This document shows positions 3,241 through 37,106 of a DNA stretch of 41,458 nt, piece by piece. The position numbers and the translations under genes were made by a program. This DNA is from Chiloscyllium plagiosum (taxonomy: Eukaryota): contig NC_057758.1 of NCBI RefSeq assembly GCF_004010195.1, positions 9,191,815-9,233,272 of the forward strand, read 5' to 3'. Below the pieces are notes generated by a model. That model saw nothing but the letters and a program-made list of their open reading frames with translations, did not search any database and had not been told where the DNA came from. The first letter of the stretch is position 1; every line of letters begins with the position of its first letter.

Positions 3241-3307
3241 ATGCATAGTACAGTACGAATTGTCAGGAAAATATTTTATACGATTGTTGCAACAATTGGA
3301 GTTCCTG
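3241..3307 (+). CDS. GPR139/GPR142-like GPCR gene 1, coding exon 1 (N-terminus and first part of TM1)
   Basis: ATG...MHSTVRIVRKIFYTIVATIGVP+G then a consensus donor G|GTAAGT at 3308. The phase-1 join to 5299 gives IGVP-A-NLVAIVII, a continuous TM1. Confidence 0.9.
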
Positions 3308-4719
3308 GTAAGTGCTTAAAAGTTATGACATTGTGCAAGTTTCTGTACGCATTGGCTTCTGATGTGCATATTAACATTATAGGGCATTTTCTGATCATTC
3401 TAATACCGACATCAAAATATCATCACTTGTAAAAAATTCCAGATTTAAGTGTGGATTTCTATTCACTTTCCGGAAGAATGCTTGCCTTTTCCAAATCTTC
3501 CTCTCTCACAGGTGTGTGTGTGAGTGTGTGTGTGCACGTACGTATGGGTGTCCTGTGTGACCCGTTACAATAAAACAAGTTTCCAGAGGGTAAGTATTAC
3601 TGGGAGTCTCTCAATGTAGATTATACTGAGTGGGATTAAAAACCAACTATCACATCGATAAAGTGTCCTTTTGCTACTGAGAGGAACTGTAGTTTAGATT
3701 TGCTCTTGTGTGGATGATTTCTTGAATCGAATAGACATCAGAGATTATGTGCTTGCTGGAATTCTGTCGTTTTTAAATTGTACTCTGTTAAGGACATCAT
3801 TCTTCTTTTAGTCAAATTAGATGCAGCAGTTTGGTGAAAGCCCACTCTCATCCTGATTAATCTACTTCCAAGCGGATAATCCTAAGAATAATCAAGTCTG
3901 ATATGTACTGCTTTTGTAAATACTCAGTAGCAATATACACATACTAGCGCAGGTGATTGAGGTTTATTCAGAAATAGTTGGAATTTAGGAGATGAACGGG
4001 ATGTCGACGCTTTGTGAGCTTCAATCAATTTCACATCACTTGTCTCCAACTGCATATGGTTCCCCGACGACTCCCTCATTTTTGATCAAAGGCTGCCCAT
4101 CTCTTATTTTCCGCACGGTATCAAAGGCATTTTTCATCATTCACGAGTAAATCAATCTATTTTCTTTGTTGGGTGATTTATTTTTGTCGGTTTAATAATG
4201 ACTGCCAAATGAAATTCTGAATGTAGCAGTCTCATATGTTCTCCACGTTGCGAGTTCAAACCAGGTTACAGCTTCAAATTCTCCGCTGGAATACTGCACA
4301 GAGTTTCCAAACAATAGAACAGGGGGCAATGACTGCTGAATGCACCCCAATTCATAATAGCTCCCTGTCATGGAACTCTAAACCGAGTTAATACTTCATT
4401 ATCGTTTTTCTGTTGGTTTGAAAACAGCAGATACAGCAGCCAGTGACTGTTTAAGAAAAGTTAATAAAACTACGTTCAAAGTGTGAGAGTTCTGGAGAAA
4501 TCTGTTTTGATGACATGTACACCATCCCATCACACTCATTTCTTTGTAACATAAGTCAATCATATATGTGCTTCCAGAAATGCAGGGAGTGGTTCAAGGA
4601 CGATGGGCTCAAGTCACGAGAACAAATGTTGAGCACATTGGAATTACCCGGTTGTGTCAGCACGTCCTACCCCGCAGAACATGTCTTTCTTTCCAATATA
4701 CTCATTTAATTGTGTTCTC

Positions 4720-5065
4720 AGAGGGTAGCGCAGCAGCAGAGACGTGGGTTAGATTCAAACCTTGGGAGTGTTTATGTGGAGTTTGCAAGAGTCTGCATGG
4801 TTGTCCATCTGGCGCTCCGTTTTTCTCCCACCGTCAAAAGATGTGAAGGTCAAGTGGATTGGCCACCCTAAATAGCTCCCGTGCCCACGGATGTGCAGGC
4901 GAGGTAGATTAGCTGGGAGAATGCGAGAGGAAAAGATGAGGATGAAAACTCCATATGGGTTTATGGGTTTATGGACTGAGGGGTTGGGGTTCTGGATGGG
5001 ACACTCTTCAGACGGTCAGTACAGCCTGAATGGGGCGAATGACCTGTATAAGAATTCAATGATTC
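4720..5065 (+). mobile_element. Decayed V-SINE (HE1-like) in the gene-1 intron
   Basis: TGTGGAGTTTGCA...GCGCTCCGTTTTTCTCCCACCGTCAAAAGATGTG V-domain remnant and SINE tail. Confidence 0.75.
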
Positions 5066-5298
5066 CGTGGAAATATAAATGTTCTGACTTTGATATTGCC
5101 GGAATCTTCCCAAAACCCCAGTTCCATGTATTTTAATAAAACCAGAGCCGCTAGCAATTAGGTGCTTTTGCTTAACCACATTGTAGTTTAACCAATGAAA
5201 ACATCCATTGTCTACTTTTCTAACTGAAGTTCAGTGTTTATTGCCATCACCCGAGTATAAATAAGACAGAGTCCACTTTTGCCTTCTCTCTCTTACAG

Positions 5299-6195
5299 CA
5301 AATCTAGTGGCAATTGTGATCATATCCCAAGGAAAGTGCGGGATCTCCAAATGCACTACTCGTTACCTGGTGGCCATGGCACTAGCGGATCTACTGACGA
5401 TTATCACTGAGGTCATGATTATCCGAATCAATAGTTATTATTTCCCAATACCTTTTCTGAAACTGACCCCTGTTTGTAAAGTTAATTACCTCCTGGCTCG
5501 AATCTCAATGGACTGGTCAGTTTGGTTTACTGTTGCCTTTACTTTTGATAGACTTATTGCGATATGCTACCAGAAGCTGAAATCTAAATATTGCACTAAA
5601 AAAAACGCAACAATGGTTCTTGCAATAATCTGCGTATTTTTTAGTTTAAAAAATATTCCCATCTACTTTCGATTTGAGCCTTACCGAATAATTAATAACG
5701 TACCACTGTATTGTTCCAATAAACAAAGCTATTACACTGACCCAAGATGGATTGGATTTAGAGTGTTTGATAAGATTTTAACGCCATTGTTACCATTCGC
5801 TTTCATTCTGTTATTCAATGCTTTGACAGTTCGGCACATTTTAGTGGCTAGCCGAGTCCGTAAGGCTGCCCAAAGAACAGACCAAAGAACAGAATCAAAA
5901 TGACCCAGAAATGGGGAACAGACAGAAGTCTGTGATTTTACTTCTCGCTATATCATGCAGCTTTATAATACTGTGGCTTATGTATATTTTGTCTATTTTT
6001 AATGTTGATAACGGTTTAGATTATAATGCTGAATATATATTTGTGAAAGTAGCGTATATGTTGAGGAATTTATGTTGCTGCATAAACACATTAATTTATG
6101 TTGTGATTTTGCCCAAGTTCAGAGAGCAGTTGAAGAGCATGATGAAATATCCAATTACATCAATTATTAAACTAATTTCGAAGCGAAACAACTGA
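5299..6195 (+). pseudogene. GPR139/GPR142-like GPCR gene 1, exon 2 (TM1-TM7), one frameshift at ~5865
   Basis: Polypyrimidine tract and CAG| acceptor at 5297-5298. Motifs: YLVAMALADLL (TM2), TM3 Cys and FTFDRLIAIC, TPLLPF..ILLFNALTVRHI (TM5), DPEMGNRQKSVILLLAIS (TM6), CCINTLIY..KFREQL (TM7/H8). ORFs 5307-5903 and 5911-6195 are in different frames. Confidence 0.88.
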
Positions 6196-6446
6196 TACAG
6201 GTTGAATATTTGTAGTGTAAACGCGAAGTATGGATTGGTGGAAGAAGTTTAGGAAAAGGATCGGGAGCCTGACATATAAAATTGTTCTGACAGATTTACA
6301 TGAAGAAGCAGAGGAAATACTTTCACAGCTGATGTCTGCACTAACAAAGAAACAGCTGCACAGATCAAGCATGAACTGTCTGGAGACCTGGAAGGAATGA
6401 GCTGGCGCAACCCAACACTAGAAAGCTCAACAAAGCAAATTCATCA

Positions 6447-7710
6447 AACATCGAACTGCGAACAACACAGCGCAGAACAGGCCCTTTGGCGCTCTATGTT
6501 GCGTCGACCTGTGAACTATTCTCAGCCTGTCCCCCTACACTATCCCCAAATCATCTATGTACTTATCTAAGGATTGATTAAATCTCCCTCATGTGGCTGA
6601 GTTGACTACATTAGCAGGTAGGGCATTCTACGCCCTTACCACTCTGCGGAAGAACCTGCCTCTGACATCTGTCTTAAATCTATCACCCCTCAATTTGTAG
6701 TTATGCCCCTCGTACAAGCTGACGTCATCATCCTAGGAAAAAGACATTCACTGTCTACCCGATCTAATCCTCTGATCATCTTGTATGTCTCTATCAAATC
6801 CCCTCTTCTTGCCAATGAGCACAGGGTCAAGTCTCTCAGTGTTTCCTCATAACATCTTCCCTCCAGACCAGGCAACATCCTGGTAAATCTCTCTGCACCT
6901 TTTCCAAAGCTTCCACATCCTTCCTGTAATGGGGCGACCAGAACTGTACACAATACTCCAAGTGTGGCCACACCAGCGTTTTGTATAGTTGCAGCATGAT
7001 ATTGCGGTTCCGGAACTCAATCCCTCTACAAGTGAAACCTAACACATCGTATGCCTCCTTAACAGCACTATCCACCTGGGTGGCAACTTTCAGGGGTCTA
7101 TACACATGGACTCCAGGCTCCCTCTGTACATCCACACTACCAAGAATCTTTCCATTGACCCAGGACTCTGCCTTGCTGTTATTCCTCCCAAAGTGCATCA
7201 CCTCACATTTAGCATTGGACTCCATTTGCCACCTCTCAGCCCAATTCTGCAACCGGTAACATTCCCCCTGCAACATTCTTCCAAACTGTCCATTACTCCA
7301 CCGACTTTAGTGTCGTCTGCAAATTTACTAATCCATCCACCTATGCCTGCGTCTAAGTCTTTTATAAAAATGGCAAACAGCAGTGGTCCCAAAACAGATC
7401 CTTGTGGCACACCACTAGTAGCCGGACTCCAGGCTGAATATTTTCCATCAACCATCACTCACTGCCTTCTTTCAGAAAGCCAGATTCTAATCCAAACTGC
7501 TAAATCACCCCCAATTCCATGACTCTGCATTTTCTCCAACAGCCTACCATGTGGTACCTTATCAAAAGCTGTACTAAAGTCCATGTATACCACGTCAACT
7601 GCCCTACCCTCATCTACATGCTTGGTCACCTTCTCAAAAAACTTAATGAGACATGACCTGCCCTTGACAAAGCCATGTTGACCATCTCCAATCAAATTGT
7701 TGCTTGCTAG
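6447..7710 (-). mobile_element. CR1 LINE, RT domain to 3' tail (5' truncated)
   Basis: QHGFVKGRSC, DFSTAFDKVPH, GVPQGSVLGP, FADD, YCVQFWSP motifs on the minus strand, with the tail remnant AACATCGAAC at ~6447. Confidence 0.95.
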
Positions 7711-7711
7711 A

Positions 7712-9504
7712 TGAGGAATACGAGAATGATCAGGGAAAAGGTAGGGCCGATCAGGGATAGCGGAGGGAACTTATGCGTGGAGTCTGAGCAGATAGGGTAA
7801 GCCCTAAATGAGTTTTTTGCTTCGGTTTTCATTCACCTTGTTGTGAATGAAAACTTTGAGGAGTTGCGATACAGTCTTGACCAGATCAAAGTTGATGAAG
7901 TTGATGTGCTAAAAATTTTGGAAAATATTAAAATTGATAAGTTCCCAGGGCCAGACCAGATTTATCCTAGGCTGCTCTGGGAAGCGAAAAATGAAGTTGC
8001 TGAACGACTGTCGAGGATATTTGCTTCCTCACTCTCCACGGGGTCGTACTGGAGGATTGGAAGGAGGCAAATGTTGTTTCTCTTTTCAAGAAAGGTAATA
8101 GGAAAATCCCTGGCAATTTCAGACCAGTCAGTCTAACGTCTGTGGTCAGCAAAGTTTTGGAAAGAATTTTGAGGGATAGGATTTATGAATATTTAGCAAA
8201 GCATAATGTGATTAAAGGCAGTCAGCACGGCTTTATGAGGGACAGGTCATGCCTCACAAATCTAACTGAGTTCTTTGAGAAGGTGAGAAGACAGGTCGAT
8301 GAAGTTTGAGCAGTGGATGCGGTGCATATGATCTTCAGCATGGCATTTGATAAGGTTCCTTATGATCGGCTCATTTATAACATCAGGAAGTCTAGGATCC
8401 AGGGATCCAGATTTGGCTATCTGGATTCAGAATTGGTTGGCTGACAGAATGCAGAGAGTGGTTGTGGATGGGAAGTATTCTGCCCGCAGGTCAGTGTAAA
8501 GTGGGGTCCCGCAGGGCTCTGTTCTTGGGCCTCTGCTCTTTGTACTTTTTATAAATGACTTGGATGAGGAGGCTGAGGGGTGGGTTAGTAAATTTGCAGA
8601 TGACACAAAGATTGGAGGTGTCGTCGATAATATAGAGGGCAAATGCAGACTGCATGGCGACATAGACAGGATGCAGAGCTGGGCTCAGAAGTGGCAGATG
8701 GAATTCAACCTGGATAAATGCGAAGTGATGCATTTTGGAAGGTCGAACTCGAATGCTGAATATAGGATTAACGACAGGATTCTTGGCTGTGTGGAGGAAC
8801 AGAGGGATCTGGGTGGGCAAGTACATAGATCCCTCAAAGTTGCCAAACAAGTGGATAGGTTTGTTAAGAAAGTACATGGTGTGTTGGCTTTCATTAACAG
8901 GGGGATCGAATTTAAGAGCCGCGAGGTTTTGCTGCAGCTCTACAAGTCCCTGGTGAGACCACACTCGGAATATTGTGTCCGGTTCTGGTCGCCCTACTAT
9001 AGGAAAGATACAGAGGTTTTAGAGAGGGTGCAAAGAAGGCTTACCAGGATGCTGCCTGGACTGGAGAGCTTGCCTTATGAAGAAAGGTTGAATAAGCTTG
9101 AACGTTTCTCTCTGGAGAGATGGAGGCAGAGAGGAGATCTGATCGAGGTATACAAAATAATGAGTGGATTATATAGAACCAATAGCCAGAGACTTTTCCC
9201 CAGGCCAGGATTGACTGGTATGAGAAGTCATAGTGTGAAGATATTAGGAGGGAGGTATAAAAGAGACGTCAGAGGTAGGTTCTGAACGCAGAGAGTTGTG
9301 AATGCATGGAATGCGTTGCCAGCTGTGATGGTGGAAGCAGAGTCATTGAGACATTTAAGCAACTACTGGACATGCACATGGATAGCAGTGAGTTGAGGGG
9401 TGTGTAGGTTAAGTTATTATATTTTACATTAGGATTAATCTCGGCACAACATCGTGGGCCAAAGGGACAGTTCTGTGCTGTACTTTTCTATGTTCTATGT
9501 TCTA
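7712..9504 (+). mobile_element. CR1 LINE, ORF2 3' two-thirds with (TCTATGT)n tail
   Basis: PGPDQIYPRLL, SKFADDTKIGG, YCVRFWSP. A 241-aa open stretch at 8560-9285, ending in TTCTATGTTCTATGTTCTA. Confidence 0.95.
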
Positions 9505-9526
9505 ACTCGAATACGGCTGGTGTGTG

Positions 9527-9532
9527 AATAAA
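9527..9532 (+). promoter_or_regulatory. Candidate polyadenylation signal (AATAAA) of GPCR gene 1
   Basis: First canonical AATAAA found downstream of the 6195 stop, about 20 bp past the end of the LINE pair. Variant ATTAAA/TATAAA hexamers occur earlier. Confidence 0.3.
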
Positions 9533-10379: not shown

Positions 10380-10508
10380 CGCTTTCTCTCTCTCGCAAGT
10401 GCACACACACACCCATACACAAACACGCGCACACACAAATACACACACACACACACACTCGCAGACATTTCTAAAACTCCCCCCCCCCCCCCCCCCACGC
10501 ACACACAT
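10380..10508. repeat. (CT)n/(CA)n microsatellite with poly-C tract
   Basis: Directly visible. Confidence 0.9.
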
Positions 10509-11970: not shown

Positions 11971-12559
11971 TGAGCGACAGACAGCGAGAGACAAAGTGTT
12001 CCTCCTGAAGCCCACAAACGCACCCACCCCCCGCACCGTACCCTCACCTTCGCTGCACCTGTCCTGCCCACAAGGTCAGATGGCGCGCACTCCATCTTAA
12101 TTGCCATCGTAGGAACCCTGTTTTAGATTTTCCTGCTGTCTGAGGCTGGAAAAAGTCGCATTAGCTAACATCTCTGTATCACGGAACACGCAGCCTCAGG
12201 CAGCATGCAGGAGATTGGGTGCAGCAGTGTGCGATCCCCGATTAATCTGGATGACACAGGGGGTCAGGAGCAGCTCCACCCCGGCTGTGGCATTCCAGAA
12301 TCATTCCTGAAATTAACAAAGGGAAAGATCACTGTTGCCACTGGTCATCTCTTCCATCTCCCCCAACTTCTCTGCCCTCAGTCCCCTTCACCGAGGTTTC
12401 CATCTCGATGCCATGAATTAATTTTCTAATCCCACTTTGACGCCTTCATCATTTATTGCCCTCTGATTGCCTCTCGAGTTGGCCGTGCTCACATATACTA
12501 ATAATGGCCGCTTGCTGTTCAATGGCGTCACCATAATTTTATCTCGGTCCCACTGCATC

Positions 12560-13450
12560 AATCCATCATCAACATTGTGGGAATTATGTTTGAAGCACAA
12601 AGTGTACTGAACGGACCGTATCAATTCAGTGGCTAAAGAGCTAATCAGATGAGAGCAATTCTGCAAAAACTGAATGATCTCCTGAAGAAACCCTTCACTC
12701 CCACAAGGCTGTCCATCCTCGTCAAGGCACAAATGAAGAACGTGATGGAATACTGTCCATTCACCTGGATCTGCGCAGTTCCCGTGACAATCAAGGATCT
12801 CGAATCGATCCAGGACAAAACAGCTCGCTTGGTTGGCAAGGCATCCACTCCTTGCACCACCGATACTCAGTAGCAGCAATGTGCACCATCTACAAAATGC
12901 CCTGCAGAAATTCACCGGAACTCCGACCACATCACCTTCCAATCTTATGACAACTTCTGTCCAGGACAGTAGGTATATGGGAACACTATTCTATGCAAGT
13001 TCCCCTGCAATCTACTCACCTTCCTGACTTGGAAATATATCGCCGTTCCGTCAGTCGCACTCGTCAAATTTCTTAACGTCCCTCCCTAATAGCATTGTAG
13101 GTCAATCTGCAGTATGCATTCTAATATAGTTCACGAAGACACCTCACCACCACCTTCTCAATGTGGCAAAGGGATGAGGAATAAATGTAGGCCAAAAAAG
13201 CCCTTCCCACTGACCATGAATGAAGAGAAATGAAGGGCAAGGGAAATGTATCGGCAATACACTATCACTCACTCACAGTGTTGAAATTCCATCCCTGACA
13301 CGTGATTGTAGGTCTATGTGCAGCACACAGGTTGCACAAGGTCAAGAAGGAATTCTGCATACACTATTTTCAAGGGGGGCAGTTAGGGATGGGCGACACA
13401 TGACAGCCTGCCCAGTGCCGACCACATCTCATAAAAGGAATGAAAGTTCA
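12560..13450 (+). mobile_element. Old CR1-superfamily LINE (second family) 3' portion with tandemly duplicated 3' tail
   Basis: TPTRLSILVKAQMKNVMEYCPFTW...LESIQDKTARLVG, then the tail CACCACCACCTTCTCAA..AGGGATG..AATAAATG. A second diverged tail copy lies at ~13240-13450. Confidence 0.75.
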
Positions 13451-15254: not shown

Positions 15255-15347
15255 TTGAGAGAGTGGTGCTGGAACATCTCAGCAGGTCAGGCAGCATCCG
15301 AGGAGCAGGAAAATCAATGTTCCAGTCAAAAGCCTTTCATCAGGAAT
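15255..15347 (-). mobile_element. Penelope-like terminal fragment with decayed hammerhead motif
   Basis: The minus strand reads ATTC-CTGATGA-A-AGGC-TTTT-GACT-GGAA-CATTGATTTTCCTGCTCCTCGGATGCTGCCTGACC. Same family as 23373-23606 and 31866-31960. Confidence 0.75.
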
Positions 15348-15399: not shown

Positions 15400-18200
15400 T
15401 TTCAAATAGTTCGATTGGAACTGTTTTTGTCACGTGTGTCGAGGAAGGGCTCCTGACGCAATATGTAGATAGGCTGACTAGAGTATAGGCCGTATTGCAT
15501 TTGTTTCTTGGCAACGAACCATGCCAGATTTCAGATCTCTTGGTGGGGGAGCATTTCGGTGATAGTGATCACAATTCAATGACTTATGGAGAGGGATAGG
15601 AGCAGATAGTATGGGAAAGTATTGGATTATGGGAGGGAGAATTAGCGTGGTATTCGACAAAAGCTGGATTTCTAGATTAAGAACATGTTTTGTCTGGGAA
15701 ATGCATGTCGGAAATGTGGGGGTCCTTTAGGAAGCAGTTGCTGGTAGTGATGGATCGGTTTGTCCCACTGAGGCAAGGACGTAATGGTGAGTTGAAAGAA
15801 CCTTGGGTGATAAGACATGTGGAACATATCGTCAAGAAGAAGAAAGAAGCTTACTTCAAGCTGAGGAGGCAAAGATAAGACATGATTTTAGAGGGTTACC
15901 AGGTAGCGAATCAGGAACTGAGGAATAGTCTTCAGTGAAGGATTGAAGGATTGAAGGAAAACCCTCAGGAGTTATACACCTCTGTGATGAACAAGAGGAT
16001 GGCCAGAGTGAGTGTTGGGCCGGTCAAGGATAGTGGCGGGAGCTTGTACCTGGGGTCCGAGGAGATAAGGGAGATCCAATATGAATACTTTGCTTCAGTA
16101 CTCCCTCCTCAGAGGGACCTTGATGTTTCTGAGAACAGAGTGACACAGACTGAAATGCTAGAACAAGTTAATGTAAGGAATGAGGGTGTACTGAAAATAT
16201 TGTTAAACATAAAGGCCAATATAACCCCTGGGCCAGACTGGAGATACCCTGGTTTTTACCTCAAGCGAGGGAAGAGAGTGCTGCACCTTTTGCGTTGATC
16301 TTTGCATTCACACTGTCCACTGGATGAATGACAGATGATTGGAGGGTAGCAAATATTATTCCCTTTTTCAAGAAAAGGATTACTGATAATCCTGGAAAAT
16401 ACAGTCCCGTCAGTCTTCGGTCAGCTGTTGGCAAAATATTGGAAAGGGTTCTTAGTGACATAATTTATGATAATATAGAAAACCATAGTTTGATTAGACA
16501 TAGTCAGCACAGTTTTGTGAGGAGCAGGTCATGCACCGCAAACCTTATTGAATTCTTTGAAGATGTGACAAAATACAGTTGATGAAGGTGGCCCAGTGTA
16601 TGTGGTGTGTATTAATTTTATCAAGGCGGGTTGATAAGGCACCCCATGTTAGACTCATTCAGAATGTAAGGGGGTGAGGTGTGTGAAGTAATTTGGCTGT
16701 CTGTATACTGTATTGGCTGGCCCATGGAAGAGATAGAGTGGGGGTAGATGGGAAGTATTCAGCCTGGAGCTCAGTGACCGCTGGTGTTCCGCAGGGATCT
16801 GTTCTGGGAGCTCTGCTCTTTTTAATTTTTATAAATGATTTGGATGAGGAAGTGGGAAGGTGGCTTTGTGCATTTGCCAAAGACACAAATAGATGGTGGA
16901 TAGTATGAAGGGATGTTGTAGGATGCAACAGGACATGGAGAGCATGCCCCAATCCGTAGGGGTGGCGCGGTGGCTAAGTAGTTAACACTGCTGCCTCAGT
17001 GCATGAAGGACTCGTGTTCAATTCCATCCTCCAGCACCTGTCTGTGTGGAGTTTGCACATTCTCCCTGTGTCTGCGTGGGTTTCCTCCAGGTGCTCCGGT
17101 TTACTCCCACAATCCAAAGATATGAAGGTTAGGTGATTTGACCATGCTAAATTGTTTGGTGTTGTACAAGAATGTGTATGTTAGGGTAGATTGGCCATGG
17201 CAAACTGTCCCGTGGTGTCCAGGGATGTGCAGGTTCTCTGAATGGTCATTCTACATTGTCCATAGTGTTCAGGAATGTGTACGTGAGTGCGGTTAGGGGT
17301 TAAATGAAAGAGAATGGGTCTTTGTGGATTATTCTTTGGGGAACAGATGTGGTTTTGCTGAGCCATCGGACTCGTTTTCACACCGCAGGGATTCTATGAT
17401 GTGAGGATGCAGATTTGGGTTGTGAAGTGGCAGAAGGAATTCAAGCTGGAAAAGTATGAACATTTCTCTACAGACCATCGAATTTGAAAGTGGATTGCAG
17501 GGTTAAAGGCAGGATATTGGCATTGTGAAGGAACAGAGGGGTCTTGGGTTTCATGCCCATAGATCCCTTGGAGTTGTCACCCAAGCTGATCGAGCTGTTC
17601 AGAAGGCTTTTGATGTGTTGGCATCCTTAGCAGGGCGATTGAGTTTAACAACCGTGAGGTAATACTGCAGCTCTACAGAACCGTCGTTCGACCACACTTG
17701 GAATATTGTTTTCAGTTCTGGTCGCCTCATCATGGAAAGGACGTAAATGCTTTAGAGAGGGTGCAGAGGAGATTTACTAGGATGCTATCTGCACGGGAGA
17801 GCATTTTGACAAGAAAATTTAAAGGAGCGCGGCCTTTTATCATTGGAGACAGAGGAATGAGTGGTGACATGATAGAAGTGCACAAATGTTAAGAGGCATG
17901 GATAGACTGGATAGCCAGAGACTCTTTTTTTCCCAGGGCAAAAATGTCTTTCATGAGGGACATAATTTGATTGTAATTGGAGAAATATTAAGCGGAGAAG
18001 TCAGAAGTAGGTTCTTTTCACAGACAGAAGTGGCTGTGTTGCTTGCACCGCTCGCACTAGTAGTAAGGACTGGTACATTACGTACATTGAAGTGATTGGC
18101 ACCTGGAAGGTCGTACAATGAAGGGTATGTTCGTTAGTCTGATGTCAGAGTAGGATGAAAGGTCGGCACAACATCGGGGGCTGAAGAACCTGTACTGTTC
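15400..18200 (+). mobile_element. Decayed CR1 LINE ORF2 (late endonuclease to 3' tail), interrupted by a SINE
   Basis: WRVANIIPFFKK, PGKYSPVSL, SQHSFVRSRSC, GVPQGSVLG, YCFQFWSP. Multiple stops and frameshifts. Confidence 0.9.
16958..17400 (+). mobile_element. V-SINE (HE1-like) with three internal ~50-bp repeat units
   Basis: GGTGGCGCGGTGGCTAAGTAGTTAACACTG head, a near-consensus V-domain TGTCTGTGTGGAGTTTGCACATTCTCCCTGTGTCTGCGTGGGTTTCCTCCAGGTGCTCCGGTTT, and a GGGATTCTATGAT tail. Confidence 0.92.
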
Positions 18201-21430: not shown

Positions 21431-23467
21431 ACAAAAAAAAACATTTTTTGTTGTTCCTTGAAATAATCTGGAAGGAAAAGACATCCGTATCATCACTCAA
21501 TGTCAGACAGGCAAGCTGATAGTTTAATAACAGTTTGAGAGTGTTGGTGGTGACGCAGAGCCGGAGGGTGTCAGGAAACATCTGAAATTTAATGGCCTAG
21601 AGTCTGAGGATATTACACATGTAGCCCGCTTGTATAGTCAAGTATGAATTCTCAGGCTTGTCCAGAGAAAACAGTCCTGGCTCATAGAGGAAAATGACTG
21701 CAGGAGATTGTCCGGCTGTGGTTAGGTCAGTCAGAAACGATCCAGAAGTATGCAGCCACAGAGAACAAAATGGCTGGGGAGAAAGTTTGGAAGAGGATTT
21801 ATGCGGTCAACTTCGGGAATAATAACGATACCTAATCATTACAGCTAATTATGTTCTCGCTGATGACAATGGCTCAGGGATCGACAGGACTGGCAACTTA
21901 ATGCTCCAGGATGCAAAAGCGACAGGATTGATAGAAAGGGAGGCAAAGTCGGGTGGGGTGGAGGGGGTGTGTAGCATTTATGATAAGGCAAGACACTGTA
22001 CTGAGGGAGGCTATTCCCGGAAATACATCTGAGAAGTTATTTGGGTGGAACTGAGAAATAAGAAAGGGATGATCACCTTATTGGCATTGTGTTATAGACC
22101 CCTTAATAGTCAGAAGGAAATTGAGAAACGAATTTGTAAGGGTATCTCATCTATCTGTAAGAATAATAGGATGGTTATGGTAGAGGATTTTTACTTTCCA
22201 AACGGACACAGGTGCTGCCATGGTGTTAAGGGCTTAGTTGAAGACGAATTTGTTAAGTATGTGCAAGAAAATTTTCTGATTCAGTATGTGGATGTACCTA
22301 CTAGAGAAGATGCAAACCTTGACCTGCTCTTGGGAAATAAGGCAAGGCAGGTGACTGAGATGTCAGTGGGGGAGCACTTTGGGGCCAGAGACCATAATTC
22401 TATTTGTTTTAAAATAGTGATGGAAAAGGATAGACCAGATCTGAAAGTTGAAGTTCTAATTTGGGGAAAGGGCAATTTTGACGGTATTAGGCAAGAACTT
22501 TCAAAATCTGATTGGGGGCAGATGTTCACAGGTAAAGGGACGGTTGGAAAATGGGAATATTTCAGAAATGAGATAACGAGAATCCAGAGAAAGTATATTC
22601 TTGTTAGCTTGAAATGAAAGGCTGGTAGGTATAGGGAATGCTGGATGACTAAACAAATTGAGGATTTGGTTAAGAGAAAGAAAGAAGCATATGTCGAGTA
22701 TAGACAGGATAGATCGAGTGAATCCTTAGAAGAGTATAAAGGCAGTAGGTGGATACTTAAGAGGGAAATCAGGAGGGCAAAACGGGGGCATGAGATAGTT
22801 TTGGCAAATACAGTTAAGAGAAATCCAAATGGTTTTTACAAATACATTAAGGACAAAAGGGTGACTAGGCAGAGAACATAGCTCCTCAAAATCGACAAGG
22901 CGGCCTTTGTGTGAAACTGCAGGAGATGGGAGAGATACTAAACGAGTACTTTCTATCACTATTTACTGTGGAAAAGGACATGGAATAGATAGAATGTAGG
23001 GAAATGGATGGTGACATCTTGAAAAATGTTTTTCTTACCGAGTAAAAAGTGTTGGATGTCTTGAAACGCATAAAAGTGGATATATCCCCAGAACCTTATC
23101 AGGTGTACCTTAGAATTTTGTGGGAAACTAAGGAAGTGATTGCTGGGTCTCTTCCAGAAATATCTGTATCAGCAATAGGTAAGGTGCTGGAAGACTGGAT
23201 GTTGTCTAACGTGGTGCCACTGTTTAAGAAAGGTGACAAGGGCAAGCCGGGGAACAGTAGACCAGTGACCCTGACGTCGGTGGTGGCCAGGTTTTGGAGG
23301 GAATACTGAGGCATTTGGAAAGACAAGGACTGATTAGGGATAGCCAACATGGTTTTGTGCGTTGGAAATTATCGAGGTAAAAACAATGATGGCAGATGCT
23401 GGAAACCAGATTCTGGATCAGTGGTGCTGGAAGAGCACAGGAATTCAGGCAGCATCCGAGGAGCTTC

Positions 23468-23507
23468 GAAATCGACGTTTCGGGCAAAAGCCCTTCATCA
23501 GGAATTC
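23468..23507 (-). ncRNA. Minimal type-I hammerhead ribozyme motif (PLE-associated)
   Basis: GAAUUC-CUGAUGA-A-GGGC-UUUU-GCCC-GAAA-CG-UC^GAUUUC. The core is intact, stem II is 4 bp, stem III is the palindrome ACGU, and stem I pairs at 5 of 6 positions. Confidence 0.7.
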
Positions 23508-23511
23508 CTTT

Positions 23512-23549
23512 ATTCCTGATGAAGGGCTTTTGCCCGAAATGTCGATTTC
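23512..23549 (+). ncRNA. Second hammerhead motif (inverted copy, C-to-T change in stem III)
   Basis: AUUC-CUGAUGA-A-GGGC-UUUU-GCCC-GAAA-UG-UC^GAUUUC. Confidence 0.6.
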
Positions 23550-25695
23550 GAAACTCCTTGGATGCTGCCTGAACTGCTGTGCTCTTCCAGCACCACTAAT
23601 CCAAGAGCGTTGGAAATTATGTCTCCCAAACCTGATTGAGGTTTTTGAAGAAGTAACAAAGGGGATTGATGAGGGTAGAGTGGTAGATGTGATCTATAGG
23701 GACTTCAGTAAGGCATTCAGCAAGATTCCCCATGGGAGACTGGGTAACAAGTTTAGATCTCACAGAATACAGGGAGAACTCGCCATTTGGATACAAACTG
23801 GTTCAAACGTAGAAGAAAGAGGGTGTTGGTGGAGGGTTGTTTTTCATACTGGAGGCCTGATTCCAGTGGAGTGCTACAGGGATCGGCGTTGGGTCTTCTA
23901 CTTTTCACCATTTATATAAATAATTTGGATGTGAACATGAGAGGTATAGTTAGTGAGTTTGCAGATGACACCGAAATGGAAGGAACAGTGGACAGTGAGG
24001 AAGGTTACCTCCGATTCAACGGGATCTTGATCAGATGGGCCAATCGGCTGAGAAGTGGCAGATGGAGTTTAATTTAGGCAAGTGAAAGGTGCTCAATTTT
24101 GGGAAAGCACATCTTAGCAGGACTTGTACACTTAATGGTAAGGTCCTAGGCAGTGTGGCTGAACAAAGAGACCTTGGAGTGAAGGTTCATAGCTCCTTGA
24201 CCCTGGAGTAGCAGTAGATAGGATAGTGAAGAAGGCGTTTGGTATGCTTTCCTTTATTGGTCAGAGTATTCAGTACAGGAGTGGGAGGTCATGTTGCAGC
24301 TGCACACGGCATTGGTTAGGCCACTGTTGGAATATTGCGTGAAATTATGGTCTCATTCCTATCGGAAATATGTTGTGAAATGTGAAACGGTACAGAGAAG
24401 ATTTACAAGGATGTTGCCAGTGTTGGAGGATTTGAGTAAGCTAGGGCTGCATTTTCTGGAGCGTCGGAGGCTGAGGGTGACCTCATAGTTGTTGATAATA
24501 TCACCAGGGGCATGGATAGGTTAAATAGGCAAAGTCTTTTATCTGGGGTTTGGGAATCCAGAACTAGAGGGCATAGGTTTAGGGTGAGAGGAAAAAGGTA
24601 TAAAGGAGACCTAAGGGGCAACGTCTTCACACAGAGGGTGGTACATGTATTGAGTGAGCTGCCAGAGGAAGTGGTGGAAGCTGGTACAATTGCAACATTT
24701 AAAAGGCATCTGGATGGGTATATTAATAAGAGAGTTTTGGAGGGATATGGACCGGGTGCTGGCAGCTGGCAATGATTGGGTTGTAATATCTGGTCGACAT
24801 GGACAAGCTGGACCAAAAGGTCTGTTTCCGTGCTGTTCATCTATGTGACTCTATGACTCTATGGTTGGATGACTGAAGTAAATGCCTTCCAACACTCAAA
24901 GCAAGGGAGTAATCTGTCAAAAACATTACTTATCGGCGCAAAGTGAGGTTAGATAATTGACGGGTCCCAGTTCCGAAGTAAGAGCTCCTGAAATGTTATT
25001 CATCACTGTGAATGAGTCAGGGGAAATCTGTTTCCCAGAACCCTTATAGCAGTTCCCACGGTCTGAACAATTACTATGTTCTCGCTGGTACTTCAGGAGC
25101 TGTGAAAGTTGGATGAATCGCTTCCCACCTTACAGCATATGATACAGAAATGATTCTCTTCCAACATACTCTGGCTTTCTCATTTCTGAAACTGCATTTA
25201 CTACTGAACAGGCCAGGTGTTCATCTGAATCCTCTTCAAAGGACAGAACAGTTGTCAGATTTGACCCTACTGTGAGGTGTCACTTTTCATTCCATGTTAA
25301 AAATCCAATGAGTGATATTCTGATGCTGACGAATCCAATGTACATCACGTCTTCGGCTGGGAAATTCTTTTTGCTTCCTGACTAGGAATGTTCCCTTTCC
25401 AAAAACATGTGAAACATGCTTGAAGAAGGAAATAGTCACCATGGAAGTTCGTATCTTATATGTTATGGAACAGACTAGCCGTCATTAAAATATGCTAAGA
25501 AGGTAACTGAGTGCCCAGCCTTTTCTTGTTTGAAAGACAAATGTAACATATCGATACCAATGTAATGCGACTGATCAAGTGCTGTGCCACATTATACAAA
25601 ACAAAATTCACTTGAGTGAAATAGTTAAAATATAATCGAAAGGAATACGAATTTGAAATAACTTAACCCTATTGGAAACATAAGAATAATAGTCT

Positions 25696-30055: not shown

Positions 30056-30140
30056 CAGAATCATAGAGTGGAAACAGGCCCTTCTGTCCAACAATTCGAC
30101 ACCGACCCTTTAAAGAGTAACCTACCCAGAACCATTCCCC
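30056..30140 (-). mobile_element. SINE 3' fragment inside gag region
   Basis: TGGAAACAGGCCCTTCTGTCCAACAATTCGACACCGACC, similar to the SINE tail at 36048-36110. Confidence 0.65.
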
Positions 30141-31015
30141 TGCAAACCACTAAGCCACCGTGCTTTATGAAGCAACAACAGCCCATCAGCCATTTCAATT
30201 GCTCATCCTCCCGTTTCACCTCTCTGTTCTTCCACACGAGTTCTCATTACTCCTGGAAGTAAATTATTGAACTCCTCCAAAACAATCGTCCCTCTTAGTG
30301 GTTTTAACGTTAGATCTTATCCACCGATCCAAATTGCTTTGTATTGCCATTTCAAACTCAATGCACGATTAGTCATTGATTCCTGAAACGTTGTTTATTG
30401 GCTTCTGGCACTAGGACATTTGCAGTTGAGATAGCTTTTTCACCTCATTATACTCCGTAGAAATCTCCTGTTATAGTTTTAGAAATACCTCACTACGTCT
30501 ACTTCCCAACTTTGTTTCGATTAACAATACCAGCGTGGTATCTGATCACTTCTTTTCTTTCGGCATTCTCTCAAATGAAATGTAAAATGGCTTCTACCTC
30601 CTTCTAATCGAATATCTGCAGCGCTTCGATATATTTAAACAGATATCCACCTGGCCGTTGGCTACAATGGATTTACTCGTTATCGCTATTCTCACGAAGA
30701 CTATCTTCTATCTTCACCTCTGTCTTTTTAAAGTGGACTTTCTTCTCTAATTGCCAAAGTTTAAAGCTAAAACTCTCTCTTCCTGCTTTTGTTTTCTCAC
30801 TTTTTTTTCTTTCTTTCTTTATTCTGGCAGGACCACTTTCTCTGTTTGAAATCGTAGCTTAAACTGTTTAATTTCCTTTTCTCTTTATTTTGACTCGACT
30901 TGAAGCTGTTTCATTGCAATTAAATTTTTACATTTCCAAAAATTCCAAAGATAATTTCGGCAATCATAAATAATGTGCAATTGCCACAACCATCTTTCTC
31001 CTCCTTCCAGCGTGT

Positions 31016-31117
31016 TATAGAACATAGAACATTACAGCGCAGTACAGGCCCTTCGGCCCTCGATGTTGCGCCGCCCTGTCATACCAATTTGAAGCCCACC
31101 TAACTTGTACTATTCCA
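31016..31117 (-). mobile_element. Young CR1 3' tail fragment
   Basis: ATAGAACATAGAACATTACAGCGCAGTACAGGCCCTTCGGCCCTCGATGTTGCGCCG with CpGs preserved. Confidence 0.8.
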
Positions 31118-31356
31118 ATGTGTTTGCCAATTCTAAAAGATTTGCCTTTCTTACGTTTTGTAAAACCCCCAAACTGATTTGTTCCACCCCTAGAAAACTC
31201 TTAACGAACGGATGAACCATTCCGACTCAAGGTACACACTGTTTGAGCTAACCGAATTCAACACTTGACTTTAAAGACTCCAACAAACACCACTTGCAAC
31301 CTTGAAGTCCAACAAACGAGAACCTAAGTTGCAGTTTGGGATTTCGATCACGACTA

Positions 31357-31365
31357 GAGCCCCCA
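31357..31365 (-). other. Primer-binding site (tRNA-Pro)
   Basis: TGGGGGCTC 3 nt after the LTR end ..TAACA. It matches the first 9 nt of the complement of the tRNA-Pro 3' end. Confidence 0.8.
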
Positions 31366-31368
31366 GTT

Positions 31369-32088
31369 TGTTATTGACCAGACCAGACACCTCACAATAG
31401 TTTAAGGCGGTACCCTAGACTCTAACATTTTCTTATTTCAAAGGCAGATGTGAGGTGTCTGTTACTGACGAATGTGACTGGTCAAACTACTCGACAAGAG
31501 GCAAGTCACAATTTATTTGAACATTGTCGTTAAAATACAATCAAAGAAAAAATAACTTAGAACAACTTAGCTGTGTTAGCAATTTAACAACATAATAGAT
31601 CCAATAACGACTACCAATTAAATGGTCCAACGAAGCAACACTTGGAATACGCGCCCCTTGTCAAACCAGTGACATTCAGACACAGCTTCTCACATGCAGT
31701 TCTCCACTCCAGGAGGAAAAAGATATGAAGAGAAAATCCAGCGAGAGTGGCAGTGAAATTCACTGAAGCATCTAACTCTATCCAGACTCCAATATATTCT
31801 GATGCTACTCGGAAATCTTAATCTGTGAGACCTGACCATACTCATTTAGGGTGCATTGAAAAGAGCCTGATGAAGGGCTTACGCCAGGAAAGTCGACTCT
31901 CCTGCTCCTCGGATACTGCCTGAACTGCTGCTCTTTTCCAGTGCCAGACTTGTCGACTCCGCATTTTAAGAAAAAGCCTCCAAGCTGTTTCATCAAGTGT
32001 CAACCTGCAGCCAGATAGAGACCTTTACCTTCTTATCTCACTTCAAATAAAGAACCTAATAATCTCTTAAAGCGACACCATCCTCAGA
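31369..32088 (-). repeat. 5' LTR of the Gmr1-like element
   Basis: Plus strand TGTTATTGACCAGACCAG...CTCTTAAAGCGACACCATCCTCAGA matches TGTTATGGAACAGACTAG...CTCTTAACGTGACAGTATCGTCACA at 25461-26277. AATAAA at 31517-31512. Confidence 0.8.
31866..31960 (+). mobile_element. Penelope-like terminal fragment with decayed hammerhead motif, inside the 5' LTR
   Basis: C-CTGATGA-A-GGGC-TTAC-GCCA-GGAAA-GTC-GACTCTCCTGCTCCTCGGATACTGCCTGAACTG. Confidence 0.75.
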
Positions 32089-32925
32089 TATAAACACAAT
32101 TATTGTACCAATTCCATTTGGAGATGGGAATGTACCACTCTGTCTAGTTTTGCACAAGACTCTGGACTCAATTGAGGTGGAGAGTTTGGAATGGAGAAGG
32201 GAGAATGAAGACTGTTTTTGGACACCCTCAACTGAGTAAGATAATATACAAAACTTCTAAAACGTACATATCCCGATACCCAGAAAGACAATGGCAGATA
32301 AAACATTTAGTCACTTAGTTGAGAAGTAACTTAGCGGAAAAAATGTCATATTTATATTTTAGCTGATATTTGCTGAAGAGCAAGAACAAAGATGACGTCA
32401 CCTCTTGCATATTTCCGTTTCGTTTTTCTTCAGCAGCTTATGAATGATAAACATACCACATGCGAGAGAACTCCGCTGTATCCTGGGCTCGTATCCTTTC
32501 CATTTTAAACAATCATATTCCCCAGTCGACTTGATGTCTCAGTTTTCTTAAAATAGTGTTAATTCTGCACCTTTCTCCAGAGAAATCTCTGATATTCTGA
32601 CCTGATTATATCTGGTCTAACTGTCGATGGCCAACATGCAGAAAACATTTTTTTTTTATCATTTCCATATCTTTGTACACTAAACGTGAACGGAAAATGA
32701 TCTTCAAAAATCTGCTCAATGACAGAATGAAAATAATGGTGCAATGGGGAAAGTTCGCGTCCCATGAACATGCACTTGTGTTTGTTCGATTGTGTGTGTG
32801 TGTCTCTTATAAAATTGTACAGTATGTCAGGGCTTAAAACTTGTATCTTTCAAGTGGGTCTTTGATATTCACAAGAAAGGATGTCCTGGAACGTAATACC
32901 CAATTTCTGTTACATTTTGCAACGT

Positions 32926-33836
32926 TTAGATTTTAAAAGTTTTAACCAATATTTTCAGTGGATATTGTAAAACACTCTTTAACTCCTGCCTAAATTTTCT
33001 TTGGGTCCCAGCATAAATAAATGGGTTAATGGAGGAACTCAAAAGGAGAAGCATGAATCCGGCCTGTTGGAGAATAAACGTGGAATCACTGACATTCGAA
33101 CCTGTGGAATAAGTGACATGCGCAATTTGGACATTCAGGATCGTCACAAAATAAAGCAAATTTAACAGAATGAAATTGCCTGAGATAGCGAAAAGCAAAA
33201 CAATGGACATCCGCCGCTTCTCCATCTCTGGGTCAATCTGATGTTGTCCATTGTTCTGGATGCGGAGTCTTCGACGTGCTTTATTGGCTATCAGAATGTG
33301 TCTCACCGTCAATACATTGAGCAGTAAAATTAGAATAATTGGGAGACAAGGAGTTAAAATGGATCGTAACCAGTCATATGCAGTCCAGGCTAGTGACGTA
33401 TAATATATTTCTTTTATGACACAGAACCAAGGTACCCCATTAATTACGTACTGGGCTTCAAATTGAAAGTATTTGAAGACGTTTTTAAGGATGGCCAATG
33501 CAGAAACGATTCCTATCACCCACGCTGTCACGTTCGTTGTACAGTATTTCGTTTTCAAATTTTGACTAGAAATTGCCACAAAACGATCAAAGGTGAAAGC
33601 GACAGTTAACCAGACAGAGGTATCAATGGCGACAAAAATTAATACAATACGCACTGCGCACACTGGCGTTACAGACAGGTAACTGGATGGGAAGTAGACA
33701 GAAGCAATTCTGTTTAGTATTACAGCATTCAGCATGACGAGGAGATCTGTCACCGCCATGGACAGCAGATAATAGGTAACACATTCGGAAAGACCACATC
33801 TTCTTCGATACAGAACTATTACCACTGCTACATTCG
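32926..33836 (-). CDS. GPR139/GPR142-like GPCR gene 2, exon 2 (TM1-TM7, stop)
   Basis: Acceptor CTCCTCCCCCCTCTATTCCAG| at 33838-33837. Open frame with YLLSMAVTDLL, TPVC, FTFDRFVAI, PWFC, TPCLP..LLNVLTVRHI, DPEMEKRRMSIVLLFAIS, NPFIY..KFRQEL. Confidence 0.95.
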
Positions 33837-35342
33837 CTGGAATAGAGGGGGGAGGAGCGAATGGATGGAAGGAAAGGATAAAGGAGTTAGTGTTTCGATT
33901 CTCCATTTATCTGTTTTCTATAATACTGTTTGAACTGAATGCTTATAACTGCCAAAAAATGTTGTTTGCTTTTTGTTTTATCCTGTGGACAAGTATTGAC
34001 CAATTTTAACACCGTTATCCACGTTAAGTATATAACATATCAATAAGTGTATGGTACACAGTAGTCAAAGGAAAGAGGCCAAAGGAAAATAAAAATCGAT
34101 TAGACATCCACTCCAACACAGGACTATCAAGTCCACCAGAAAATTAACACAAAAACAGTAAAAGAAAATCTCTAGAAACAGCTGTTGTCGATAAATACTA
34201 AAACATCGAAGATGTGCAGAGAAAAACTACGTATGAAAAAAAAACTAATGCACTTAGGATGCAAGTATGTCATTTCCAGGATTAATTCAAACTGTTCACT
34301 CCTTGAAATGTGACTGCATACATTCTTATAGCTACCCTCATACTTTGGAAATGAACAAAACATGATGCTAAGTTCTTTTGCTCTTCAGTCACCAGAACAA
34401 GTACTGAGGGAAGCAAAAATAATTAAATGGAACATCAAGTAATGCATGTTAATGCACAGATGATCTTTGTGGATCCAAGGAGATGCATGAGAAAACGCAC
34501 AATGTCAACCTTATTTGATTGAACTAAACTGAAATGAGACTACTTAATTTTATTTGGCAGCAGTGTTTGACGTTGGCAATCCCACTGCAATTATAATTAT
34601 TCATAACCTTTCCTCTGTGTAAAAGTTGCAAGGTCTGTAAACATTCCTTTGCCTGTGCAGGACTCGAACCTCTTCAGCTATTATTACAGTCGGATATTCA
34701 GTGTCCATCTGCAACAATGCAACACTAGGTGCTGAGATCATGCTTGCAGAATAATCTCCCAATCTCTCCGCGTTACCCCCCCCCCCCCCCCCCCCCCCCC
34801 CGCTATTATCATAAAACAAAGCATAAAAATTTCTATTTCCTGATTAGGTTATCAGTGTTAGATTTGAACTACTATCTTTAATGGATATTTGTAATTGAGC
34901 ATTATGAATTACATATTAGAGATTCCACCAGTTTTGGTTCTTCATCTAAGATGAGGAAAATGGTGGTGTTGTGAAAAGGCTTGCCCCGTGGTAGTGACAG
35001 AGGAAACTCCACAATCAACGGTCGAATACTTGGACACATCATCAACAGTTAACACTGAAGAAGAACCTGTGAATTGGGAGAAACATCCCACTCTTCAGTC
35101 AAGGTCAACTGAAACGTTATCTCTCCCCAACCCCCCCCCCCCCCGACTCTCTCTCTCTCTCACACATTCTATCTCTCTCCCCCTTTCTCTCTCTCTCTCT
35201 TACTATTTGTCAAAAGTGCCGTGCTTAATACTGTCACCTTAGGAAATTCGTTCATTTATTCTGCGGGAATTATTCATTGGTGAAAGCCAATCGATTTTGA
35301 ATCAATTGCTGGCATAATTGTGCTGTGAAGATCAGTGGCACT

Positions 35343-36352
35343 TGTTATGAAGGTTTGGGTGTACCTTTAAGAGAATAAAAAGCAGCCGATCGACTGGACA
35401 GCATTAATATCTATAACACAACAATGTACATAACACTGGGTTGAACAACTCGAGTAGTTCGTTGCCTGGAGACAAAAACAAATTCGAATCAGGCCAATCA
35501 GTTTTAATTATTCCCCGATAAAAAATACCAATTTCCAATCAAATTTGAATTGAGTATTTTGACAATCTTAAAAGCCAATAACACAATCCGATGCTCTGGA
35601 GGATAAGACCAGGTGAAAAGTTAACAGTTGAGAGGAGAACTGCTCCGACCCAGCATGTGAACAGACTACTTGAAATTAGTTCTCTCTTAAAAGTCCCTTT
35701 TCAATCAGTAACCCACAACACAGAAATTCCTATCAAGGAGAAAAGAAGACATAGGAAGATCAGAAGATAAGAACCTCCAGCTGCCTGGTTTTGAGATAAT
35801 AAGTGTTCTTTTGTAAATTGTATTTGGGAGTTTTATTGGACTAGTTTTAGAGAAGGGAACTAAAGATTGGTTAGAGAAAGAAATTGCAAATACTGGTTAG
35901 TCAGTTATTCTCTGTTATTACAGCATTGAGCTGTAATAAAATTGTTTATTTTTTACTTTAAATATTTTTTGGCCACACGATTTTTACAGATTACTGCATG
36001 GGATAAATCGTTCCTATATTGCTGATTTAAGTTAAAGTAGATACATTGTGGAAACAGGCCCTACGGCCCAACAAGTCCACACCGACCAGCAACACACCCA
36101 GACCCCATTCTCCTACACCTAACACGACAGGCAATTGAGTTCGGCCAATTTACCCAACCTGCACAGTTTTGGACTGTGGGAGGAAACTGGAGCACACCCA
36201 CAAAGACACAAGGAGAATGTGCAAACGCCACACAGAGAGTCACCTGAGGTGGGAATTGAACGCGGGTCTCTGGCGCTGTGAGATAGCAATGCTTACCACT
36301 GTGCCACCGTGTAGGACGGTCCTTCCCCCCCCCCCCCCCCCGTGTCGTAACG
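35343..36352 (+). mobile_element. Solo LTR in the gene-2 intron (interrupted by a SINE)
   Basis: Termini TGTTATGA...TCGTAACG (imperfect inverted repeat), 4-bp TSD CACT (35339-35342 / 36353-36356) and an internal AATAAA at ~35935. The start GGTGTACCTTTAAGAG resembles the start of the Gmr1-like LTR. Confidence 0.7.
36038..36311 (-). mobile_element. V-SINE (HE1-like)
   Basis: Minus strand CACGGTGGCACAGTGGTAAGCATTGC..GTTCAATTCCC..TTTGCACATTCTCCTTGTGTC..CTCCCACAGTCCAAAA. Confidence 0.9.
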
Positions 36353-37036
36353 CACTGTAGTCCGAGAAAACACTGTGATCACAATTTGAAAATTCACCAA
36401 GAGTAAGTGACATTAACACAACAGTGCTACAGCTCAATTGTTCAGTAGTATAAATATCCACACACATGATGTTTCTTCACCAAAATAGGTATTTGCTTGA
36501 CCATAACGTACTGTTGTTGACAACTTACCACCAGCAGCATTGTCAATAACAAATAAAATTCGATTCCCACCATGGTGATTATGTACAACTGCAGTACTGA
36601 AACAGGACGAATGGCAAAAAAACAGTTGAACGTATATTGCAGCACGCCAACAGTAAATGGCAGAATAGATATTATAACATATTTTTATATGACACAGAAG
36701 CAGATTTCTTTTACGTTAGAAATACCAAATTATTTTATTTGATGTGACAAACGAAACTAATTAGGGGAGAATGATGTTAGGTGTGAGATATTATAACATT
36801 TGTGTGATGTAGATGGTGCAATAATGTAACAAAAATGGAACAGGAGACTGTCAAAACAGAGCATCATATAAATTCAAGTTCAGACATAGCAACGATGATT
36901 GGAAAAGAAAGCATCAGGCATGATAAAGGAAATATCCATCATGGAGAAGCGTTACGTTTGAATTGAAAAGAAAAAAATAAATCTGATTGAACTAAGTACT
37001 GAATCAAATAACTGCTAACGCTCTACAGTGCCTCAC

Positions 37037-37106
37037 CTGGAACCCCGATGGCAGCAATGACTGGATAATAGATGGCAAAAACGAGACCTGTCAATAGTGC
37101 ATGCAT
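37037..37106 (-). CDS. GPR139/GPR142-like GPCR gene 2, coding exon 1
   Basis: MHALLTGLVFAIYYPVIAAIGVP+G then donor CAG|GTGAGG at 37036. The phase-1 join to 33836 gives IGVP-A-NVAVVIV. Spliced CDS 981 nt, 326 aa. Confidence 0.92.

Follow-up and report, generated by a model that had tools for sequence, protein, structure and literature searches.

What are the two receptor genes that converge on one another in a stretch of the shark Chiloscyllium plagiosum genome, where did they come from, and what might they sense? The stretch, here called the window, is 41,458 nt long (NCBI RefSeq assembly GCF_004010195.1, contig NC_057758.1, positions 9,191,815 to 9,233,272 of the forward strand), and positions below are counted from its first letter. 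Its two genes, gene A and gene B, are real genes for class A (rhodopsin-like) G protein-coupled receptors (GPCRs), and they belong to two subfamilies of what is almost certainly a chondrichthyan expansion of well over a hundred genes per genome. The proteins were already in databases under a misleading name, and multigene sensory expansions are known as a kind; this one stands out in having started from an ancestor that was not expected, and in animals believed to have no such families.

Two receptor genes and a large chondrichthyan family

Gene A and gene B are two-exon class A GPCR genes lying tail to tail, with 26,730 nt between their stops. Their parts are as follows (TM, transmembrane helix):

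3241..3307, + strand: gene A exon 1, 67 nt (22 codons + 1 nt), N-terminus and first half of TM1
3308..5298, + strand: gene A intron, phase 1, 1,991 nt
5299..6195, + strand: gene A exon 2, TM1 to helix 8, frameshifted in intracellular loop 3
33836-32926, - strand: gene B exon 2, TM1 to helix 8 and stop, intact
33837..37036, - strand: gene B intron, phase 1, 3,200 nt
37106-37037, - strand: gene B exon 1, 70 nt (23 codons + 1 nt), with a GT donor

An earlier note on this DNA had described two convergent seven-transmembrane genes of one architecture (an exon of 22 or 23 codons, a phase-1 intron at GVP|AN and one large exon), and the gene models bear it out. Exon 1 of gene A has a GT donor at 3308 and aligns with the N-termini of relatives, and the start of its exon 2 at 5299 is preceded by a pyrimidine tract and AG. 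Exon 1 of gene B is matched by 95 of 120 relatives in a tblastn search; we rejected a start at 33906, which would make gene B a single-exon gene, given that this reading passes through the pyrimidine tract and that exon 1 matches relatives. The spliced gene B product has 326 residues without an internal stop, and it shares 137 of 316 aligned residues with the gene A protein (43% identity). The intron of human GPR139 presumably lies at the same codon. Against Pfam 7tm_1 (cut-off 30.5 bits) gene B exon 2 scores 70.5 bits and the N-terminal part of gene A exon 2 scores 55.9, with a match below the cut-off for the gene A piece behind the frameshift. Structure prediction for gene B exon 2 gives seven bundled helices with high confidence (predicted local distance difference test score, pLDDT, 88.5) and places a hairpin in extracellular loop 2 (ECL2); the other class A marks of gene B are the TM3-ECL2 cysteines, D/E-R at 3.49-3.50 and Y7.53 (helices numbered from conserved anchors). 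A fold search with this model returned class A receptors at Z scores of about 24-25 (root-mean-square deviation 2.6-3.9 over about 245-285 residues); GPR139 was not among the best 50 fold matches, and the class A receptors were tied, so the fold is uninformative as to family. No third family gene or relic was found within the window. The observed/expected CpG ratio is 0.75 in the coding exon at 5299-6195 and 0.88 in that at 32926-33836, against 0.49 in the window.

How large the family is was judged from the best 120 matches listed for each query. Gene B exon 2 matched 1,535 proteins at E<=0.001 among 3,501 candidates, and the first part of gene A exon 2 matched 840 among 1,018, totals whose unseen tails could include unrelated receptors. 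The 120 best matches of gene B exon 2 are all from sharks, at 59-67% identity, and the 120 listed for gene A are from sharks, rays and a skate. The horn shark Heterodontus francisci supplies 70 of the gene B matches and 63 of the gene A matches listed; with three more found in a search with a newt protein (below), it has at least 136 distinct clusters at 90% identity, a lower bound that gene-model errors could inflate slightly. Only 16 of the 8,778 pairs among 133 of these proteins are more than 90% identical. At 50% identity, 100 clusters reach E<=1e-30, and many of the gene models among their representatives are partial or fused. Counted by hand, one 59.5-Mb sequence encodes 52 of the 70 horn-shark B-type proteins, and one 74.5-Mb sequence encodes 27 of the 63 A-type proteins. 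In Stegostoma, Rhincodon and Chiloscyllium punctatum, A and B types occur on a common sequence, as they do in the window. The birth-and-death family that the earlier note had proposed is thus found, and it is far larger than a small set of genes with one-to-one counterparts among receptors already known. A side observation is that the whale-shark model P0102 fuses a family member with C2H2 zinc fingers, which suggests that some clusters adjoin zinc-finger gene arrays.

Members were found in sharks, rays, skates and the chimaera Callorhinchus. The Callorhinchus protein (XP_007902368.1) nests inside the family in a quick tree, so the family predates the split between chimaeras and sharks and rays. 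Subfamilies A and B both occur, as full-length frames, in more than one shark order. The name that NCBI assigns automatically to most members is 'probable G-protein coupled receptor 139'. All 60 of 60 aligned members match Pfam 7tm_1; families of olfactory, vomeronasal or taste receptors are absent from their matches at E<=0.001 (TAAR was judged only from homology and profile searches). Their other Pfam matches are Srw in two members and Srx in three, all weak, and one chance match to TUNAR.

Counts over 245 named shark and ray proteins define the family's architecture and qualify three motifs of the earlier note. The N-terminus is short, with 23-24 residues before N1.50 in 142 of 245 proteins, in agreement with the spliced N-termini of the window genes, and a glycosylation sequon lies there in 2 of 197. 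CG[LI]S occurs in intracellular loop 1 in 229. The change of DRY to FDR(F/L) recurs as FDR[FLYC] in 231 of the 245, but the D and R are kept and only position 3.51 differs. The absence of CWxP is complete (0/245), yet it is not telling: human GPR139 itself has LWAP at the aligned site, and GPR139 and GPR142, like the family, are without the Cys of CWxP. The telling change in TM6 is therefore the loss of the proline, since W/Y-x-P is found in 35 of 245 family members vs 19 of 20 amphibian proteins. The intracellular DPEM motif, just before TM6, is general as DPE-x-x-x-R-x-x-S (205/245), but in gene A it lies behind the frameshift, in another frame. In gene B the second Cys of the loop-2 CC pair is deviant.

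An orphan ancestor related to GPR139 at a distance

That the family derives from one ancestral orphan class A GPCR, in the wide GPR139/142 branch, is close to certain. Judged from profiles and trees, it is GPR139-like at a distance only, and the nearest relative found is an orphan receptor of amphibians and sturgeon. A profile of 60 members searched against solved structures found human GPR139 (PDB 7VUG, 9M42) as its best match (76.9 bits, E 1.1e-20), followed by CCR5 (61.9 bits, E 4e-16). A profile of the amphibian gene also placed GPR139 first (E 7.6e-17), ahead of NTSR1 (7.3e-13), and GPR142 was absent from both match lists. The description of the window genes as GPR139/142-like is therefore apt insofar as GPR139 is the nearest characterised receptor, but the likeness is distant and in the tree the amphibian/sturgeon orphan is nearer. 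Gene B scores 25.9 bits against human GPR139, at about 24% identity by eye, and the M5 muscarinic receptor scores no lower; against orphans of bony vertebrates it scores 130 bits (coelacanth), 110 (silverside) and 98 (newt). The family also differs from GPR139 in that the window genes each keep one of six pocket residues, the TM6 proline is mostly lost and the genes are multi-copy. The true GPR139 proteins of human and zebrafish share 70% identity, and GPR139 is also a two-exon gene (PMC7318219). Gene A and gene B are, on these sequence comparisons, probably not GPR139 orthologues.

The search with the newt protein (Pleurodeles waltl XP_069092602.1, P0237) gave 25 rows, of which 20 are amphibian, one is from a sturgeon and four are from sharks or skates; no amniote or teleost was among them, though a word-based search cannot prove loss. 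The amphibian and sturgeon rows are P0237 and P0402-P0421; the amphibian ones amount to one cluster per species in 20 species, and other examples of the orphan are Xenopus tropicalis P0405 and Acipenser ruthenus (sturgeon) P0421. A profile-profile comparison of the family with this orphan gives E 4.5e-57. Like the family, the orphan has a short N-terminus and, in 16 of 20 proteins, the DPE..R..S motif; unlike the family, it forms one cluster per species, has an almost invariant pocket and keeps the TM6 proline.

A tree (IQ-TREE) was built from 49 rows chosen from 329, a set without true GPR139 or GPR142 sequences. Its 30 chondrichthyan rows form one group, with support of 93/69, which is not firm, and this group joins the amphibian-sturgeon orphan as its sister at 100/98. 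Outside this clade lie two coelacanth-teleost sets and an amphioxus protein, and the invertebrate rows fall outside the vertebrate clade. A constraint uniting the family with the coelacanth P0218 set was rejected (approximately unbiased test, p-AU 0.006), and one uniting all bony-vertebrate rows was marginally rejected (p-AU 0.045). Unlike the tree, the raw score ranks the coelacanth set closer than the amphibian gene.

The amphibian/sturgeon orphan, which is mis-named GPR139, is of note for its near-invariant pocket, which makes it a candidate for a fixed ligand of its own; we found no paper on it. Two more GPR139-like orphan sets (P0218, P0232, P0265, P0266, P0270) comprise proteins of the coelacanth, teleosts and a crocodile. 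They probably correspond to the orphans GPR210A/B of coelacanth, gar and teleosts that Rinne et al. (2019, PMC6504862) placed under GPR139/GPR142, with the reference ids ENSLACP00000014196, -15589 and -19189. The two coelacanth proteins found here fall outside the family, and in the tree P0218 and the others form the next branch out from the family and the amphibian/sturgeon clade. In the accessible text of that survey the GPR210 genes are few-copy genes, with no expansion and no mention of sharks. One of the two GPR210-like sets extends to reptiles, through the crocodile protein.

Further out, nematode Srw/Srx receptors and FMRFamide/MIP-type receptors lie on the same deep branch as the family, and FMRFamide-receptor-like clusters occur in the Atlas. 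Srw chemoreceptors probably arose from peptide receptors; the expansion of the shark family is independent. GPR139 and GPR142 have been placed with FMRFamide, MIP and proctolin receptors (PMC8514136).

Pocket variation and the proposed role of the family

On its sequence pattern the family could well be a chemosensory repertoire expressed in sensory cells, a reading that we hold to be evenly balanced against all others together. Each paralogue would bind its own set of small outside molecules, and binding is placed in the transmembrane pocket because the N-terminus is too short to help. The shared cytoplasmic face would couple all paralogues to one G protein, which may be Gq/11, as the example of GPR139 would suggest, or Go, the G protein of microvillous neurons in sharks. 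Together the set would report a wide range of outside chemicals, most likely from an olfactory or other chemosensory epithelium.

Numerous paralogues that lie in clusters and are gained and lost over time make a repertoire pattern. In being a clustered multigene family with birth and death and a variable pocket this one resembles olfactory receptors (OR), TAAR, V1R/ORA and V2R/OlfC, to which it is unrelated by sequence. Variation within the receptors was measured as mean per-position entropy compared across regions, for 31 positions that usually form the pocket in class A receptors. Among horn-shark paralogues (n=70 B-type; n=63 A-type) pocket entropy is 1.18 and 1.54 bits, other outer helix positions have 0.79 and 1.04 bits (p 0.012 and 0.013 vs the pocket), and the inner helix halves are the most conserved (0.49 and 0.45 bits). 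The 20 amphibian orthologues, which are similar overall in identity (79% vs 73-76% in the horn shark), show the opposite, with 0.06 bits in the pocket vs 0.43 bits at other outer positions (p 0.00016). In line with the loop divergence of the earlier note, the outer helix halves are variable and the inner ones conserved. Pockets that vary most and a cytoplasmic side that varies least among horn-shark paralogues make what reads as a receptor-repertoire pattern: the ancestral-type gene appears to guard one pocket, and the shark copies appear to let the pocket vary while keeping the G-protein side. A single-copy amphibian gene with a frozen pocket accordingly offers a route to the ancestral ligand.

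The six residues of the GPR139 Trp/Phe pocket are E108, F109, H187, W241, R244 and N271 (PMC5430874, PMC7318219). Mapped by profile alignment, one of the six is present in each window gene: W241 in gene A and F109 in gene B. The amphibian gene keeps three of the six, with Lys for Arg; W6.48, P6.50 and N7.39 are retained in it. The N271 position is Tyr/Phe in 66 of 70 B-type and Tyr/Phe/Trp in 50 of 63 A-type horn-shark proteins, and in the B-type set position 3.33 is Tyr/Phe in 63 of 70 and position 5.42 is His in 41 of 70. The earlier suggestion of amino-acid sensing fails to the extent that L-Trp/L-Phe sensing cannot be carried over from GPR139, as its amino-acid pocket is not kept; amino acids may be bound in another manner.

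Known olfactory receptor genes in cartilaginous fishes average 43.8 (20-62) (Policarpo et al., 2024, PMC10869828), and their olfactory organs are large (Syed et al., 2023, PMC10116579). The 136 or more divergent receptors of a single shark amount to roughly three times that mean. It is a tentative, somewhat less favoured proposal that the family constitutes further, unrecognised olfactory receptors, several times as numerous as OR, TAAR, V1R and V2R combined and built independently from a GPR139-like orphan. If true, this would explain good shark smell with few known receptors and would overturn the view of sensitivity instead of discrimination: Syed et al. (2023) explained shark smell by sensitivity rather than range, considering only the four known families, and Tan et al. 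(2021, PMC8455134) described GPCRs as comparatively scarce in cartilaginous fishes. Whatever its role, be it in smell, taste, the skin or immunity, the family would rank among the largest receptor families of cartilaginous fishes. No published account of the expansion was found in the literature searched, which mostly excludes subscription journals and some supplements; term searches gave no mention of the family in the accessible portions of PMC12208981, PMC11979771, PMC10869828 and PMC10620051 or of the supplements of PMC8455134, PMC10529500 and PMC11057056. The unnamed 7tm_1 orthogroup OG0000181 of Tan et al. (199 proteins, 17 taxa) might be the family.

Several points weigh against a chemosensory role. 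The excess of pocket variation is not significant in the whale-shark set (19 proteins, p 0.77) or the sawshark set (17 proteins, p 0.44), where the inner half is again most conserved, so part of the signal simply reflects outer vs inner half. Entropy is not the ratio of nonsynonymous to synonymous substitution rates (dN/dS) and cannot tell positive selection from relaxation. Of the columns conserved to 90% or more, 18 are changed in gene A and 15 in gene B; the medians for relatives are 4 and 5, and both genes come close to the upper end of the relatives' range. Selection on both may be relaxed in this lineage. Short N-termini and variable pockets are also typical of the immune and somatosensory receptors FPR and MRGPR. 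Finally, a catshark library of brain and olfactory epithelium has no GPCR among its 50 most specific genes, in the accessible part of the report (PMC11979771); the list is weak as counter-evidence, as known V2Rs are missing from it too.

The main rival to a chemosensory role is danger sensing in immune cells or skin sensory neurons, a repertoire for microbial or parasite peptides and irritants comparable to MRGPR and the formyl-peptide receptors. From sequence we consider it unlikely, though the least so of the alternatives. It would give the same sequence pattern, and MAS1/MRGPR are reported absent in cartilaginous fishes, which leaves a danger-sensing role vacant (PMC8455134). The common origin of FMRFamide, MIP and proctolin receptors makes the wider clade a peptide-binding one (PMC8514136), and some peptides activate GPR139 (PMC7318219). 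That CCR5 is second in the profile search adds little, being 15 bits below GPR139 and explicable as generic class A likeness. In 4,750 characters of a supplement on nurse-shark spleen the family is not mentioned, which is too little text to count against this role.

A role in reproduction or internal signalling, in which the receptors would act in sperm, the reproductive tract or the brain and respond to pheromones or to seminal or endogenous peptides, is improbable. The invertebrate relatives do include the sex-peptide/MIP receptor, and the invariant amphibian pocket points to one fixed endogenous ligand in the ancestor; however, more than 100 receptors with differing pockets and ongoing loss would rarely be needed for endogenous ligands. 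Slightly less probable again is largely neutral growth, in which segmental duplication in repeat-rich DNA left most copies silent and the outer face drifting. Such drift is expected if folding alone constrains the proteins, and the LINE and SINE (long and short interspersed element) relics in which the window is rich, its broken gene A, the partial or fused models among the 50% representatives and the failure of the pocket excess in two of four shark sets would all fit. Opposed to this, the subfamilies shared with full-length frames across shark orders, the chimaera member and the conserved inner helix halves (0.25-0.64 bits across shark sets) imply very long purifying selection. Least credible is a function of the GPR139/GPR142 type, with the same pocket tuned to L-Trp, L-Phe and food odours akin to them, as GPR139's place as best solved-structure match (76.9 vs 61.9 bits) and the frequent 3.33 Tyr/Phe and 5.42 His of B-type proteins are set against one of six pocket residues kept per window gene and a mostly aromatic N271 position.

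The gene A lesion and the rest of the window

The disabled copy that the earlier note had pointed out is gene A, whose frame is shifted and ends at a premature TGA at 5901-5903, present in the window sequence. Two features of gene A bear on its recent history:

5866..5893, + strand: frameshift lesion, a perfect 12-nt tandem duplication (5870-5881 / 5882-5893)
4624..5226, strand not assigned: 603-nt intron segment that holds a high-copy repeat

The region was compared with contigs of the sequencing runs X1, X2 and X4. X2 and X4, from two other samples, each have a contig across the lesion in which, within 5866-5882, eight bases are different and one letter is absent; in the X2 contig the open frame is restored and 3 of 373 letters differ outside the lesion (99.2% alike). 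The X1 contigs leave the site uncovered, and the window version of the lesion is in none of the contigs spanning it (X2, X4). The lesion is therefore recent, or an assembly error, since contigs about 99% alike are in frame there. The local 12-nt duplication resembles a repair event rather than a sequencing slip, and if the assembly is not in error, gene A is probably either a null allele that arose very recently or a duplicate that has only just been disabled. About 2 in 100 of the single-cell run X5 was read, and none of those reads fell on gene A.

The 603-nt segment is skipped by contigs in X1, X2 and X4, and X1 and X2 also hold contigs carrying part of it; it is a polymorphic or paralogue-specific insertion. 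In X1 the contigs that skip it have a depth of 74, whereas the flanks have about 28, a hint that there are further copies of nearly the same sequence. At 5382 the contig depths add up to about 137-182x a flank depth chosen by eye, a figure that is a hint only and not a copy number.

The 2 kb upstream of gene A and of gene B have no alignable element in common, and Rfam gave no match in the window. The 26.7 kb between the genes contain LINE and SINE relics, and the repeats and other elements of the window are:

6690-9285, 15939-17800, 22033-24840 and 38863-41385, both strands: decayed LINE copies
12418-13000, + strand: decayed open frame
23414-23603: inverted repeat of 92 nt, 93% complementary, with a 6-nt spacer

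The frame at 12418-13000 resembles what we take to be the 3' end of a retroelement protein, and the - strand open reading frame at the same place has no Pfam match. Within the first LINE copy, the frame at 8500-9285 matches RVT_1 (Pfam). The inverted repeat consists of two head-to-head copies of a short interspersed element that is also present at 15262 and 31866.

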